DNA from: Candidatus Bathyarchaeota archaeon
GTDB lineage: Archaea > Thermoproteota > Bathyarchaeia > Bathyarchaeales > Bathyarchaeaceae
NCBI GenBank assembly: GCA_963697165.1
Contig: CAVOMX010000011.1
Coordinates: forward strand, 64,001-128,000
DNA length: 64,000 bases
Direction: 5' to 3'
Below the pieces are notes generated by a model that did not search any database, was not told the DNA's origin, and saw nothing but the letters and a program-made list of their open reading frames with translations. Both the position numbers and the translations under genes were made by a program. Positions 35,936 through 49,015 of this stretch are shown here, in pieces; the stretch's first letter is position 1, and every line of letters begins with the position of its first letter.

Positions 35936-36037
35936 TGGCGGGCCCGAGGGGAATTGAACCCCTGACCTACGGATTAAGAGTCTCAGCCTAGTCCCAATGG
36001 ACCAGTCCGCCGCTCTGCCTTGCTGAGCTACGGGCCC
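35936..36037 (-). tRNA. tRNA-Lys(CTT) with encoded CCA and a 25-nt intron at position 30/31
   Basis: GGGCCCG acceptor stem, GCTC/GAGC D stem, GCGGA-CTCTTAA-TCCGT anticodon arm after removing 35982-36006, AGGGG-TTCAATT-CCCCT T arm; 77 nt mature. Confidence 0.95.
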
Positions 36038-40153: not shown

Positions 40154-40855
40154 CTAGGGCAGAATCAGAATCTCCACTTTAACCTTGTTCCCGTCTTTCA
40201 GTTTCAAGCTACTTCGAAGAAACGTTGGAGAAACAATCTCCATCACAGAATCCCCGTAATGGCTTCTTAGAGCATAGATGACTGCGCCCTTCACTTTGTT
40301 GTTTATTATTGCAGGGTAACACTTCACTGGACCAAAAGTTCTGGACTCGTCCTCAAAACCTTCAAGCTCCACACAAGGATACGCCTCAAGCTCAGACATG
40401 GCTTTTATGTCATAGTCGGTCGTCAGTTTGATGTTAAAGGTGCCGGGATAGGGATCAAAACCAAGCTTTTCCATAAACTGTTTACGATACCCCTCTTTAT
40501 TCACGTAATAGGCGCCCTCACCCAACCCGCTGAACAAAACGCCCTCCAAAGTTAATGACGGCGGATACTCTGACTCAAAAATCAAACGCAACTCAGAATA
40601 CAGTTTCTTTAACTCGGCAACTCCTAGACTAGTGATTTTCGTCAAACAGCCTTCCGGAGTTATGGTTCGTTTTATCCAACCCATCTTCTCCAAGTTGATA
40701 AGGTGCCTAGATGCTGTCTGCTGAGAAGATCCAATCTTTTCAGCTAGATACTCCGTGGAAACCTTAACAGTTCGGCTAGAAGCACCCAACTCCGCTAACT
40801 TATAGAGAGTAAAGAAGAGCTTCCAGGACCTTAAATCAAGTTTCAGGTGGTCCAC
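40154..40855 (-). CDS. ribK: CTP-dependent riboflavin kinase with N-terminal wHTH
   Basis: SQQTASR HTH; SGLGEG.YY, PYPGTFN, LKDG. Confidence 0.93.
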   Translation of the reverse strand: MDHLKLDLRSWKLFFTLYKLAELGASSRTVKVSTEYLAEKIGSSQQTASRHLINLEKMGWIKRTITPEGCLTKITSLGVAELKKLYSELRLIFESEYPPSLTLEGVLFSGLGEGAYYVNKEGYRKQFMEKLGFDPYPGTFNIKLTTDYDIKAMSELEAYPCVELEGFEDESRTFGPVKCYPAIINNKVKGAVIYALRSHYGDSVMEIVSPTFLRSSLKLKDGNKVKVEILILP

Positions 40856-42378: not shown

Positions 42379-44876
42379 CTAATGTTTTCTCCTGTAAAGC
42401 ACTAATAATGCTATGGCAACCAGAAACAGCACAACAAGCAGCAAAGAGACAAGAATCCACCAAGAGTCCTGAACAACAGAAGAGAACATTATTTGCTGAT
42501 TAATATTCGAGTTGACGGTTACAGTTCCAGACGACAAAGAAGCCATGTAATCAGCTGGTGCAACAACAGAGAAGGAGTAGTCGCCGCTTTGCACTTCGAA
42601 ATTTATTGTGTACGAACTGGAGCTCTTCGTCTGATCGTTAAAGGTTACAGTCCAACTTGTTTCTTCGGGCAAGCCTGACGCAACGAAGGATACTTGGTAG
42701 GTTTGGGGGCTAGGCGAGTAATCACCTATTGCATAAACTATGTGATCATATGAACCCACATAAACTATACCATTGGCAACAGCAGGAGAAGAAACCACAG
42801 CATCACCTGTTTTGTAATTCCATAGTTGGGCGCCTGTTGTAGCATTCAAATGCGTAAAAGTTTTTGTCTTCTGAACCTACGTAAACCTTGCCATCAGCCA
42901 CAGCAGGAGAAGAATCCACGTAGCCACCTGTTGTGTAATTCCATATCATATCACCAGTAAGAGCATCTAATGCGTAAATGTTGTGATCACGTGAGCCAAT
43001 GTAAACTATGCCGTCACCCACTGCAGCAGATGAATACACTGGACCACCAGTTGTGAAATTCCACACCAAGTCGCCGTTAGATGCATCCAAAGCGTACACC
43101 TTCTGGTCCTGTGAGCCAACATAAACCAAACCACCAACCACAACAGGCGACGACAGAACCATATCACCTGTTTTGTAACTCCATAAAGGATCACCTGTTG
43201 AAGCATTCAAAGCGTAAACTTTGTTAGTCTAATGAGCCTATGTAAACTATGCCGTTGGCAACAGCAGGAGAAGACATCACAATCTTGCCGCCAGTTGTGT
43301 AGTTCCATACGAGGTCACCAGTTAAGGCATCCAAAGCGTAAACCTTGTGGTCCTGTGAACCAACATAAACCAAACCGTCAGCTACCGCAGGAGAAGAAAC
43401 AACATAAAGGTCTGTTTTGTAATTCCAAACATGAGCTACCCGTTAAAGCATCCAAAGCGTAAACGCTTGTGATCATACGAGCCAACATAAACAATACCAT
43501 TAGCCACTGCAGGAGAAGATAAAAGAATCATATCTCCGGCAGTGAAAGTCCATATGACAGTGTTGTGTAGCTCCAGATCGAAACCTACCATGCCTGTTGT
43601 AGCGTTCAATGCGTAAACTTTGTGATCATGTGAACCTACGTAAACTATGCCGTCAGCTACTGCAACAGAAGAATCCACCTTTCCTCCAGTTCTGAAAATC
43701 CATACAAGACTCACCATCTAAAGCATCCAAAGCGTAAAGCTTACCGTCCCATCCGCCCACGTAAACTATACCGTTAGCAACATCAGGACGAGAAACCACA
43801 AGATCATCTGTTGTGTAATTCCATACCAAGTCGCCGTTAGATGCATCCAAACAGTAAACCTTGTTATCTTGTGAACCCACGTAGACCTTGCCATCAGCCA
43901 CAACAGGAGAAGACGATACGCCCCCCCTGTTTTGTAATCCCAAATATGAGCACCCGTTAAAGCATCTAAAGCGTAAACCTTGCTATCTTCTGAACCTATG
44001 TAAACCTTGCCATCAGTCACAACAGGAGAAGAATACACTGGACCACCAGTTGTGAAATTCCATACTAAAGTCGCCGTTAGATGCATCCAAAGCGTAAACC
44101 TTGTTATCTAATGAACCCACATAAACTAGGTCATTGACAACAGCAGGAGAAGAAACAACATTATCTCCAGTTTTGTATGCCCATATGAGGCTCCCATTAA
44201 ACGCATCTAAAGCGTAAATGTTGTTGTCTATTGAGCCAAAGTAAACTATGTTGTCAGCCACTGACGGAGAAGACAACATTATTTGACCGCCTGTTTTGTA
44301 ACTCCAAATATGAGTACCGGTTGAAGCGTTCAAAGCGTAAACCTTGTTGTCAACTGATCCCACATAAACAATACCATTAGAGTATGCGGGATCTGTATCC
44401 ACGAAGTATTCTGTTGTGTAGTTCCAGACTTCAGCACCATTGACTGAATCCAAACAATAAACATTGTAGTCTTCTGAGCCTACGTAAACTAAACCATCAA
44501 CCACTACAGGACGAGAAACCACTACCCCACCAGTTACATAATTCCATGCTTGAGTACCGTTAGTTGCATCCAAAGCGTAGATTTTTCGGTCATAGGAACC
44601 AACATAAACCAAACCGCCAACCACAACAGGAGAACCTACTTGACCACCAGTGTTGAATTTCCATAAGGTCTGGTTTGTTTTAGGCGCTGTTGACTCTGAC
44701 TTGCCAGTATTCGCTAGATTCTGGTGAAACATAGGCCAATCGTCTGTTTCTGAGGGCTCCGCCGAGACTTCAGATGCACCAGCAGATTCGATTGTTGCGG
44801 ATAGGAAGGTGATGGAAAGGGGTGAGACTAAAAGGAGCACAGCCAAGACTAGACAGGTAATGGCTTTTTTGTTCAT
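42379..44876 (-). CDS. Surface protein with 16 PQQ-like blades, a small beta-sandwich domain and a C-terminal TM anchor; broken by multiple frameshifts
   Basis: Signal peptide; DDWPMFHQN; tandem SSPxVxxGxVYVGSxDxKxYALDA units spread over ORFs 42379-44876; YQVSF..SGLP..TSW.V domain; TM helix plus RRKH. Confidence 0.85.
42725..44665 (-). repeat. Tandem coding repeats of about 120 bp (propeller blades)
   Basis: Recurring gcatc(c/t)aaagcgta and caggagaaga every about 120 nt; near-identical blocks at about 43032-43096 and 44031-44095. Confidence 0.85.
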
Positions 44877-45312: not shown

Positions 45313-45810
45313 TTATGATTTTTGGGTTGTTTCTTCAGCTCTCCTTTGCTGCAATAGTTCTTTGGCTAAATCTCGGGCATGCTCATGATAGATTAAATCA
45401 ATAATTTTGTTCCAATCAAAATCTTGTTTCATGTTATAATGAGAAAATTCTTCACGAGAAAACATGACAAGCTTGTCTGAATCATACAAAATCCTGAAAG
45501 CCAAAGAAGGATTGTCGGGATGATCATGATGAGTGCGCACAATCTCGCAAACCTCATCAACAAAACTTTTGTCGTACCCCAGTTTCTTTAGAATAGACCC
45601 GGCTATTCCTGGACCATCCTGATACTGTTTTTGGATGGTGCTTCCGCCGATGTCATGCATGATTATGGAGCAATAAATCAGTTCTTCCAAATCTTGTGGG
45701 ATATCAAAGTTTTTTTTGGAAATCTCAAAGACTCTTCTGGTGTGAGGTATTCCGAAATCGTTTTTCTTCAAGTATGGTTTTGCTAGTTGAAACACGGTTT
45801 CCCAGTTCAT
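45313..45810 (-). CDS. HD-domain protein
   Basis: HTRRV...MHDIG...HHDH...DSDKL. Confidence 0.85.
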   Translation of the reverse strand: MNWETVFQLAKPYLKKNDFGIPHTRRVFEISKKNFDIPQDLEELIYCSIIMHDIGGSTIQKQYQDGPGIAGSILKKLGYDKSFVDEVCEIVRTHHDHPDNPSLAFRILYDSDKLVMFSREEFSHYNMKQDFDWNKIIDLIYHEHARDLAKELLQQRRAEETTQKS

Positions 45811-45920: not shown

Positions 45921-46451
45921 TTATTCTTTATTGTAAACTTTTATTCCCCAAGATTTGAATGCTTGGATAAAGCTGGAACTGCTCAAAGTTTTGAGTATAG
46001 CATAGCCTATTCCCGACATCACAATTAAAGTGCTAATTGTAACGCTTGCAATCATAGCAACCCATGGTGGAATTTGTAATCCAAAGATGTCTACTTGGAA
46101 ATTAAAGAATAACCAAAGGTAGCTGCCTACAGTTACTCCAATCGGCAAAGAACCAGCAGTGCAAGCCAACAGTTGCCGTTTTCTAAGCAGAAAAACTATG
46201 GTTGCTGCGATTAAGTTAGCAATTGTTCCAAAGACAACGTCTTCAGTACCCAACCAAACGTATGAGTTACCCACAAAGCATCCAACAGTTACACCTGCGA
46301 TTGCTGGCCAACCAAACAAAGCTGCTAATGGAATCAGACAGTCTGCAACACGCAATTGCACAGGACCTTGACCCATTGTTCCTAAAGCAATGACTAAAAC
46401 TGCATACAGACTTGTAAAAACTATCGTTAAAGTTATTTCATTTGTTTTCAT
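45921..46451 (-). CDS. queT: QueT-family (preQ0/preQ1) transporter
   Basis: SLYAVL...GPVQLRVADCL..L...G.TVGCFVGN...DVVFG..A. Confidence 0.88.
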   Translation of the reverse strand: MKTNEITLTIVFTSLYAVLVIALGTMGQGPVQLRVADCLIPLAALFGWPAIAGVTVGCFVGNSYVWLGTEDVVFGTIANLIAATIVFLLRKRQLLACTAGSLPIGVTVGSYLWLFFNFQVDIFGLQIPPWVAMIASVTISTLIVMSGIGYAILKTLSSSSFIQAFKSWGIKVYNKE

Positions 46452-46462
46452 TATCTATTTTT

Positions 46463-46518
46463 ACCTCCCCACTCCGGGATTTTTAATGCGGAACGGGTGG
46501 GAGGCTCCACCTACCCGC
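46463..46518 (-). promoter_or_regulatory. Structured 5' leader of queT (candidate riboswitch)
   Basis: GCGGGU/ACCCGU stem whose loop carries GCCUCCC, complementary to the SD GGGAGGU; UCCG/CGGA hairpin between; TTTTTAAG box about 25 nt upstream. Confidence 0.5.
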
Positions 46519-46990
46519 AAAGAGAAAAGATTATAGGAATCTCTTAAAAACATTTAGCATAGAATAATAATCCTTCGCGTCATAAAATTAGTTGTAGACA
46601 ATCATTTTTAAGTCGCTATAAAACATCTCAAAATATTCCAAACGGGTCATCTGCAACATTCTGTATAGAGTTGTCTTTTTCCCATTCTTCGGTTAACCCT
46701 TCTGGCGTGAATATGTTGTTTAATCTTTTTCGGCAATCTTGAAGAAAACACCCAGTTTAAAGGCATCATCTTTGGAAAAGAAAATGTTGTCAGCATTGTA
46801 CTTTCTCATTAACGAAATTGTTTCGTTTGGTTCAATCGTGGTCAAAGCTTGGGTTTTTCGGCTAACAGGAGTTACGGGACACAAAAACAAGAACAACATG
46901 AACAAGAATCAAGAAAAAAACTACACAAAAAACCAAACTAACATTCATATTAGAAGACTAATAACAGATGATTGTTGAAATCAATCTTTT

Positions 46991-47621: not shown

Positions 47622-47900
47622 TTATTTTTCGATTCTCACGGTCTTCCTGATTAACAAGCTAACCTTCTCTTTCTGATGTTCCTCTCAATCTTTTTAACAA
47701 GAGTATTCAGTTTCTTTTCACCAGATTCGTTTTTATTAATCCATTCCTTGGCAAACTTCCCGCTCTGAACATCCTTAAAAGCTTGACACATCTTCTCCTT
47801 AACGCTTTCATATGCAAGCTTAGTTCCAACAGTTACTCGACCATAATTTGCAGTCTTCGAAACAGCATTGAGCATATGTATATTTTTTAACCTATTCACT
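47622..47900 (-). pseudogene. ilvC: Remnant C-terminus of a short (class I) ketol-acid reductoisomerase
   Basis: MLNAVSKTANYG..TVG...VKEKM..AFKDVQSGKFAKEWI, then frameshifted EEHQKEKVS.LIRK..RIEK; matches the SxTAxYG...IQSGxFAKEW...EHxIExVG pattern. Confidence 0.85.
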
Positions 47901-47968
47901 AATGTCAACAAGAAAAAGAATTTTTTATTAACTGCAACCTATTTATTAGAATCGTGTGAGGAGTCATT

Positions 47969-49015
47969 ATGGTTGAATTGGATTTCGGAGGAATAAAAGA
48001 AACTGTAGTAACAAGAAAAGAATTTCCTGTAGATCAAGCAAAAGAAATTCTAAAGGACGAAACAATTGCTATCCTAGGATATGGTATTCAAGGACGGGCT
48101 CAATCCTTAAACATGAGAGATAATGGATTTAATGTTATTATAGGCCAAAGTAAGGAATTTCCAAAGAATTACGAACAAGCAATAGAAGACGGATGGATTC
48201 CTGGGAAGACATTATTTTCGCTGAAGGAAGCTGCTGAAAGAGGAACCATCAAACAGTATCTATTGACTGATGCTGCGCAGAAAGAATTATGGCCAATAAT
48301 CAAAACCACTTTTAAAGAGGGTGATGCACTATATTTTTCACATGGATTTTCAATAGTTTACGGAAAACTTACAGGGGTTATTCCTCCACAAAACATTGAT
48401 GTTATCTTGGTTGCACCAAAAGGTTCTGGAACATCAGTAAGAAAGAATTTTCTGGCAGGTAGTGGAATAAACAGCAGTTTTGCAGTCCATCAAGATTTCA
48501 CAGGTAGAGCTGAAAATAGAGTGAAAGCCATTGGAATTGCTATTGGCTCGGGTTACTTATTCCCAACCACATTTGAAAAAGAAGTATATAGCGATCTAAC
48601 GGGAGAAAGAGGAGTTCTAATGGGAGCACTTGCAGGAATAATGGAAGCACAATATAATTGTTTGAGGGAAAATGGTCATAGTCCTAGTGAATCATTCAAT
48701 GAAACTGTAGAGGAATTAACTCAAAGTTTAATCAGGTTAGTTGACCAGAACGGCATGGATTGGATGTATAACAATTGCAGTGAGACTGCAAGAATAGGAG
48801 CCCTTAGATGGAAAGAAAGATTCAGGGATACTGTAAAACCCCTATTTGATTCTCTTTATGAATTGGTAGCTTCAGGAGAAGAAGTAAAAATTGTTCTTGA
48901 AAAAAGCGCAGAATCTGATTATGGAAAGAAATTGAACGAAGAATTAGAAGCGATGGGAAATTCTGAGATGTGGAGAACTGGTAAGACGGTGAGATCATTA
49001 AGACCTGATACATAA
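47969..49015 (+). CDS. ilvC: Ketol-acid reductoisomerase, Bacteroidota/fungal Ilv5-like type
   Basis: LDFGG..ETVVTR.EFP N-terminus, GYGIQG, FSHGF, APKGSG, SDLTGERG, CSETARIGAL. Confidence 0.95.
   Translation: MVELDFGGIKETVVTRKEFPVDQAKEILKDETIAILGYGIQGRAQSLNMRDNGFNVIIGQSKEFPKNYEQAIEDGWIPGKTLFSLKEAAERGTIKQYLLTDAAQKELWPIIKTTFKEGDALYFSHGFSIVYGKLTGVIPPQNIDVILVAPKGSGTSVRKNFLAGSGINSSFAVHQDFTGRAENRVKAIGIAIGSGYLFPTTFEKEVYSDLTGERGVLMGALAGIMEAQYNCLRENGHSPSESFNETVEELTQSLIRLVDQNGMDWMYNNCSETARIGALRWKERFRDTVKPLFDSLYELVASGEEVKIVLEKSAESDYGKKLNEELEAMGNSEMWRTGKTVRSLRPDT

Follow-up and report, generated by a model that had tools for sequence, protein, structure and literature searches.

A probable archaeal riboswitch class: a compact pseudoknot that pairs with the Shine-Dalgarno sequence ahead of queT and other 7-deazaguanine genes

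Here we present a compact RNA pseudoknot, almost certainly a real and previously uncatalogued archaeal cis-regulatory RNA, which lies in the leader of queT in a 64,000-nt stretch of a Candidatus Bathyarchaeota genome (the window). Judged by comparative sequence analysis, it probably represents a new, archaea-specific riboswitch class that works as a translational OFF switch. Covariation supports an H-type pseudoknot made of a stem P1, a loop carrying an anti-Shine-Dalgarno (anti-SD) sequence, a 2-nt loop L2, an A-rich loop L3 that ends in AAA-N-CCC, and the Shine-Dalgarno (SD) sequence itself. By comparison, the element shows what is expected of a riboswitch: a covarying structure, a cis position before unrelated genes of one pathway, and an expression platform that pairs with the SD. 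Native validated riboswitches of archaea are very few, and whether archaea own riboswitch classes is a live question. No description of this motif was found in the mostly open-access literature searched, and the accessible parts of PMC5737381, PMC10043782 and PMC9723716 do not mention it.

The minus-strand text of the first-pass annotation, which has a T-rich box at 46550-46543, a GC-rich element at 46519-46463, the SD at 46469-46463 and the ATG at 46451, was confirmed. The features of the locus, in window coordinates, are as follows.

46551-46557, minus strand: putative BRE-like A-rich promoter element, at a peak of A content that precedes the first G of the motif by 41-37 nt (n=217)
46543-46550, minus strand: TATA-like box, at a T/A-rich peak 36-29 nt upstream (n=217)
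46515-46519, minus strand: P1 5' strand, from outer-pair covariation in 217 instances
46506-46514, minus strand: loop L1, an invariant G and U, then two purines, then an optional G-rich rest
46499-46505, minus strand: anti-SD, the outer part of the pseudoknot helix P2, with partner 46469-46463, from duplex energies and compensatory variants
46494-46498, minus strand: inner part of P2, able to pair with 46476-46474 and 46472-46471
46492-46493, minus strand: loop L2 (UU), second U invariant
46487-46491, minus strand: P1 3' strand, from covariation
46476-46486, minus strand: A-rich loop L3, ending AAA-N-CCC, with a 5' part of variable length
46463-46469, minus strand: SD sequence, 11 nt before the start codon
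45921-46451, minus strand: queT, ECF-type S component of 176 aa (PF06177, E 5.4e-24), the regulated gene

The queT gene is single-copy in the window's genome, and the 16S 3' end identified in the same genome carries the matching anti-SD sequence. The promoter box lies 24-34 nt upstream of the motif's first G in 165 of 217 instances. The spacing of TATA box and BRE over the 217 instances is as expected for archaea, whose promoters keep a typical distance from box to start, so that transcription can be placed to begin a few bases before P1, probably at about 46521-46519. RNA contigs from two studies cover the leader at shallow depth, and from such contigs start, strand and level are not readable; two of them stop at 46516 and 46521, a weak hint on the start, and two others of one run continue. 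The folding energy of the element is unremarkable (z -0.86, in a model that does not include pseudoknots), and a search of the leader for a terminator-like hairpin found none. At gathering scores, Rfam reports one tRNA only in the whole window.

The surroundings of the element hold several further observations. Directly behind queT lies an HD-domain gene (45313-45810, minus strand), and an HD-domain gene also stands behind the queT-queC operons of six other loci (L008, L011, L408, L409, L410 and L414), so it may belong to a salvage operon. A PQQ-type beta-propeller repeat gene (42379-44876, minus strand) is broken over several frames. On the plus strand, a C-terminal fragment of ketol-acid reductoisomerase (47651-47911) directly precedes a full-length-looking ilvC-like gene, the two spanning 47651-49015. 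A tRNA gene (35939-36037, minus strand) has about 29 extra bases in its anticodon region, probably an intron, and the open reading frame at 40154-40855 (minus strand) is presumably an HTH-fused CTP-dependent riboflavin kinase.

Two CGG and two CCG triplets in the core allow for two alternative folds. The first-pass annotation had proposed a 6-bp stem, a second hairpin and a 7-bp pairing of loop and SD in a layout resembling preQ1-II, and every pairing that it named can be formed on paper. In favour of that fold as the functional ligand-bound state, 98.5% and 94.9% of cells pair in its two stems in an alignment of 54 sequences, with the two stems worth -9.7 kcal/mol against -6.7 for P1 alone. 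However, neither stem shows a single double-sided change in those 54 sequences; mismatches break the 6-bp stem in 20/217 and 4/217 instances, and the closing pair of the hairpin is lost in 64/217. Both stems are missing from 12 RNAs of a longer sister form that retain P1, and the fold cannot coexist with P1, the stem whose outer pair covaries. The 6-bp stem, the second hairpin and the preQ1-II-like layout thus did not hold up, and we regard that fold as very unlikely to be the bound state; it may exist as an alternative conformer.

The pseudoknot that we favour is built on P1, in which 46519-46515 pair with 46491-46487 over 5 bp. At its outer pair, 203 of 217 instances keep canonical pairing, with GC, UA, AU, CG, GU and UG all represented. 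Mapped to a tree of 194 QueT proteins, the two partners of this pair change jointly on 16 branches against 1.56 expected, 13 of the changes ending in a Watson-Crick pair, while control pairs on the same tree show 3-5 joint changes against 1.2-3.7 expected. The four inner pairs of P1 and three inner pairs of P2 never vary and therefore contribute no covariation; most of the motif searches held these invariant bases fixed. The second U of L2 may pair with G46514. Two cautions apply to the alignment: the shortest variants were misplaced in the first MAFFT version, from which 17 of the 71 rows, most of them short or almost identical to others, were excluded, and the UA/CG changes at its columns 24-25 are mostly a one-base length difference and not independent substitutions.

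The second helix, P2, joins the loop to the SD. Across 79 pairs of anti-SD and SD, the duplex with the own partner gives -16.1 kcal/mol and that with a swapped partner -13.7, a difference that none of 5000 permutations reaches, bearing in mind that kin among the pairs are not independent. Loop and SD can form at least 5 contiguous base pairs in 216 of 217 instances. In separate lineages the whole helix has been replaced with the pairing kept (L170/L181/L243/L244; L310; L245/L413/L454; L158-L161; L165; L460). Support is weaker for the inner part of P2: its flanking pair goes from CG to UA on six branches, but it is unpaired in 132 of 217 instances, and a subtype of five members has lost the 3' partner of inner P2. 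An SD-sequestering pseudoknot, as originally suggested, is thus supported, and the proposed comparison of orthologous leaders has yielded conservation together with covariation, in the P1 outer pair and in the SD helix.

These results also bear on whether there is an RNA function at all. P1 could be read as an inverted repeat just behind the promoter, hence as a DNA-level operator, and bacterial tRNA-Asp has a 3' end that fits the core pattern, hence a tRNA remnant. Between instances, however, the spacing of the arms differs by more than 10 nt, loop and SD are connected by compensatory changes, the model gives tRNA-Asp no more than 10-11 bits (E about 0.1), and there is no tRNA in the locus, all of which leaves this explanation hardly credible. 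The tRNA-Asp likeness was met in two sequences (L135:252-328 and L141:299-375), where the 3' end of a bacterial tRNA-Asp matches both core blocks at 10-11 bits; we judge it a coincidence.

Within L1, an inner hairpin of at least 3 bp folds in 205 of 217 instances, and the minimum-energy fold contains it. In the model, the G-rich rest of L1 can pair with 46500-46496 as such a competing inner hairpin, a candidate ON fold. In the nested ensemble, four of the seven SD bases are still paired, with the L3 tail, so that this ON fold is not clearly open. A reading as a T-box was also considered and dropped, as the stretch of L1 that we take to be T-box-like is not conserved in many members.

A gene-first search for QueT in 61 related genomes found 55 places, distributed over 50 of these genomes, one place being at a contig edge, and the element stands directly upstream of queT or at the head of its operon in all 54 that could be examined (53 in the short form described above, one in the long form). 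In this set, which is free of motif-search bias, the 5' core is unchanged in 53 of the 53 short forms and the middle core in 52. A pattern blind to genes matched 201 of 401 genomes of the window's class, compared with 8/401 that had any match of the reversed control, and a stricter pattern matched 68/401 genomes of the phylum with no control matches. A conserved cis-acting RNA, as had been claimed, is borne out by these counts, which chance does not come near to explaining. Outside the class, a covariance model gave strong matches in families f46, f58, f62 and f66; of its matches at E >1e-4, two were inspected (L249 and L250) and proved to be chance.

About a third of the pattern matches, 71 loci, were inspected, and 66 downstream reading frames were scanned: 63 encode QueT, one QueC, one a QueE-like protein, and one an ECF S-like protein followed by a fusion of GATase and QueC (GAT-QueC). 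Pooling the gene-first and motif-first sets, with a filter for the purine-rich tail, gave 217 distinct short forms, which lead queT in 209 cases, queE-queC in two, queC-queT in one and an S component-GAT-queC operon in one, with one gene unassigned and three instances at contig ends. In many other families of the phylum queT is present (122 of 251 genomes) and the element is missing, so the element is, by its sequence distribution, lineage-limited. Forty queT leaders from pattern-negative genomes contained one short form, one long form and one 3' half at a contig edge; neither form was found in the other 37, one of which is a leader of only 128 bases.

In wider scans, a loose pattern gave at least 120 matches in named genomes, and among those listed one is true (L034) and the others are chance; the QueT of L034 groups with QueT of genomes from the window's order. 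A metagenome scan likewise gave at least 120 matches, with true and chance ones mixed among those listed, and of two scans of viral sequences one gave 20 chance matches and the other none. As far as the listed matches of scans beyond the phylum tell, the riboswitch class has so far been seen only in archaea of one phylum. Two copies stand apart. In L027 (1343-1500) the motif lies about 130 nt upstream of queT and belongs to the subtype that lacks the inner P2 partner; some 90 nt follow, and then a second copy of its 3' half before the gene, which looks like a duplication or insertion. In L314 (176-980) a good copy of the motif precedes a 250-aa frame that has no Pfam match.

The long sister form was found in 12 leaders of five families (f11, f61, f67, f69 and f81), at the following loci.

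L537, L538, L546-L550, L552, L554, L555, L562 and L564: long form, from position about 1500 (L547: from 1027)

The pattern searches behind this set were of mixed yield, 8 of 17 matches being real in one and 11 of 14 in another. The long form keeps the letters of P1, the flanking G and U and the AAA-N-C tail, and it has a small loop, a multi-stem insert after P1, placed in the length-variable 5' part of L3, and a separate SD hairpin. A hairpin loop of the insert keeps GAUGA, and 8 of 24 predicted pairs show double-sided changes in 11 sequences. It leads queT in 7 of 12 cases and yhhQ (Vut_1) in 5, with queC next in the 2 of 2 that were checked. One leader, L538, is intermediate in sequence between the two forms. 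From the shared core letters and gene context the two forms may share ancestry; scored with the short-form model, the long form reaches 7.7 bits at best, which is not significant. Inspected by eye, the long form has a plain candidate for an ON state, in which its purine-rich strand ahead of the A-tract would pair with the anti-SD and so release the SD.

The genes led by the element speak to its ligand. QueT, YhhQ, QueE, QueC and GAT-QueC are unrelated and share only the 7-deazaguanine pathway, so the operons of queT, queE, queC, GAT-queC and yhhQ that the element or its long sister form leads point to a 7-deazaguanine ligand; the ligand class first suggested is thereby supported as a best guess. 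QueC occurs in 9 of the 61 relatives, each time in a motif-led operon. A TGT is present in 58 of the 61, and two of two tested are of the G15 archaeosine type (TIGR00432, 573 and 574 bits against a cut-off of 350), while QueF was found in none of the 61, so that preQ1 is probably not made. According to the accessible part of PMC5485725, preQ0 is the base that arcTGT inserts, and archaeosine base is not accepted by the canonical enzyme but might be by those of crenarchaea; E. coli YhhQ/QPTR imports both preQ0 and preQ1 (PMC5372724 and PMC11130926, accessible parts). The presence of TGT, the lack of QueF, the substrate of arcTGT and the import by YhhQ together make preQ0 the best-guess ligand, a choice that we hold with evenly divided confidence. 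ArcS was above its cut-off in none of five genomes, and some genomes have QueC without QueD and QueE, so archaeosine base and CDG stay candidates; archaeosine base, CDG/ADG and preQ1, taken together, are a tentative and somewhat unlikely answer. In the window's own genome, which is 81% complete, TGT and a true QueC were not found.

Some observations on the pathway stand beside this. In five genomes (G005, G016, G013, G046 and G060; loci L008, L011, L408, L411 and L412) QueC lies beside a QueT paralogue and neither QueD nor QueE was found in the genome, which suggests uptake and salvage of CDG or ADG, a route that to our knowledge has not been described. QueD was also not found in three genomes with a long form before yhhQ. 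In L397 (1471-3105) and L399 (1471-3093) the arcTGT is about 545 aa long and includes a DUF5591 domain of the ArcS type; a match to the PUA-like C-terminal part of ArcS is a separate gene. ArcS and QueF were not found in the class genomes tested for them. A second, divergent TGT-family gene of 343 aa lies beside or near motif-led queT in L013 (312-1358) and L449 (3587-4618), falling between TgtA and DpdA and below both cut-offs, and a weak TGT match occurs in G057 as well. Finally, in L466 (1-3421, genome G260) the gene directly behind the motif is an ECF S-like one that does not belong to the QueT family, followed by GAT-QueC and an MFS transporter; the S-like gene and the MFS gene are two candidate new deazaguanine transporters.

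In the mechanism that we propose, transcription would start a few bases before P1; comparison shows that P1 forms and that its loop pairs with the SD as an H-type pseudoknot. When no ligand is bound, the model suggests, the loop would be held in the short inner hairpin, P2 would breathe, the ribosome would load and translation would proceed. The ligand is predicted to bind where P1 joins P2, surrounded by the invariant G, U, U and AAA-N-C bases; once bound, it would lock P2, bury the SD and shut off import and synthesis. We consider it likely, on comparative grounds, that the element is a new riboswitch class of this kind, a translational OFF switch for a 7-deazaguanine of the archaeosine pathway. 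The short form has no C where preQ1 classes I-III read the guanine face of their ligand. The same missing C would suit a leader bound by protein, in which a preQ0-sensing or tRNA-modifying protein, for example an idle arcTGT, binds the pseudoknot and hides the SD; the invariant stems would fit recognition by a protein, and arcTGT is nearly universal in the relatives. Yet we noticed no regulator gene common to the neighbourhoods of the loci inspected, and a small RNA with invariant bases at its junction that stands before both transport and synthesis genes, as found here, is the usual pattern of a riboswitch, so we think a protein-binding leader unlikely.

If the riboswitch reading is right, a selective aptamer for preQ0 or archaeosine would add a fourth mode of 7-deazaguanine recognition by RNA and possibly a gene switch for archaeal genetics, and its regulon predicts the transporters that feed archaeosine synthesis. 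Half of the genomes sampled from a large uncultured class carry the RNA; at about 60 nt it can be made easily, and five candidate ligands suggest themselves, so that the question of native archaeal classes can be put to a direct test. A bolder form of the reading could go either way in our estimate: that this is the first riboswitch class native and restricted to Archaea, and the first tuned to a ligand of the archaeosine branch (preQ0 or archaeosine base and not preQ1), with a pocket unlike those of the three preQ1 classes, and one aptamer core in two architectures, a compact SD-burying pseudoknot and a long form with an insert and a separate SD hairpin. It would then mark environmental salvage of archaeosine precursors, including in QueC-only genomes that import CDG or ADG.

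The closest known systems are the preQ1 riboswitches, whose review (PMC11625349) does not contain the word archaea in its accessible part. An Rfam search of the leader at E up to 10 gave four chance matches and no preQ1 family, neither RF00522, RF01054 nor RF02680, as the first-pass annotation had anticipated, and a search of four long-form loci gave three chance matches and again none of these families. With preQ1-I (RF00522) the element shares the H-type pseudoknot, the 5-bp P1, the A-rich L3 ending in As and then C, the SD in P2, and the genes queT, queC/E and yhhQ. It differs in its invariant GC-rich P1, in a loop of about 15-30 nt that holds a long anti-SD, and in archaeal hosts that lack QueF. 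Class I reads its ligand by a C before the P1 3' strand, a U in L1 and an A in L3 (PMC11625349, accessible part). The element has no such C: the P1 3' strand is preceded by UU in 216 and AU in one of 217 instances, in a scan that allowed one change in the block, and by UU in 52 and AU in one of the 53 gene-first cases, not by AC or UC. In the short form the loop opens with G and not U (U or C in the long form); if G46514 pairs with U46492 and so extends P1, the loop then begins with U, which is the class I base. A preQ1-I aptamer that has diverged strongly, with a larger loop but the class I pocket, would have the same function and a different ancestry; the shared topology and genes favour it, the bases before the P1 3' strand, the G that opens the loop and the lack of any preQ1 match in Rfam oppose it, and we find it quite unlikely.

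With preQ1-II (RF01054), which is limited to Bacillota in the accessible part of PMC11625349, the element shares its place ahead of queT and a whole SD that is Watson-Crick-paired to an anti-SD in a loop. Classes II and III read their ligand by a first-loop C, a U and U-A-U triples (PMC11625349, accessible part). In contrast to class II, the short form has no P4 hairpin, first-loop C or U-A-U triples: its loop starts G, U, purine, purine where the class II pocket needs a first-loop C and a pocket U, and the second hairpin of the first-pass fold, the candidate for the P4 hairpin of an HLout fold, shows no compensatory changes and shares bases with P1, which covaries. PreQ1-III (RF02680) has the same link to queT, and the long form likewise places extra stems between P1 and the A-tract and has a separate SD helix; its stems are different, however, there is no pocket of the C7/U8/U17 type, and no match to the five-helix fold with a class II-type pocket was found in the leader or the four long-form loci. 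The element thus shares its topology with class I and buries the whole SD as class II does, and in sequence it lacks the pocket bases of classes I-III.

Among archaeal RNAs, sRk28 of Thermococcales was proposed as a pseudoknot beside a gene with a QueC-like domain and likened to preQ1 riboswitches, and is not described as validated in the accessible part of PMC3124441. Compared by eye with the accessible part of its supplementary alignment, our element differs, sharing neither P1 sequence nor A-tract and C tail, and sRk28 lies, according to the same part of the paper, inside an operon and lacks a promoter of its own. The only native validated archaeal riboswitch named in the accessible part of PMC11549558 (2024) is that for fluoride (crcB). 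Both it and the element would be RNAs of archaea that sense a small molecule or ion, whereas the fluoride class is common to bacteria and has another ligand and another fold.
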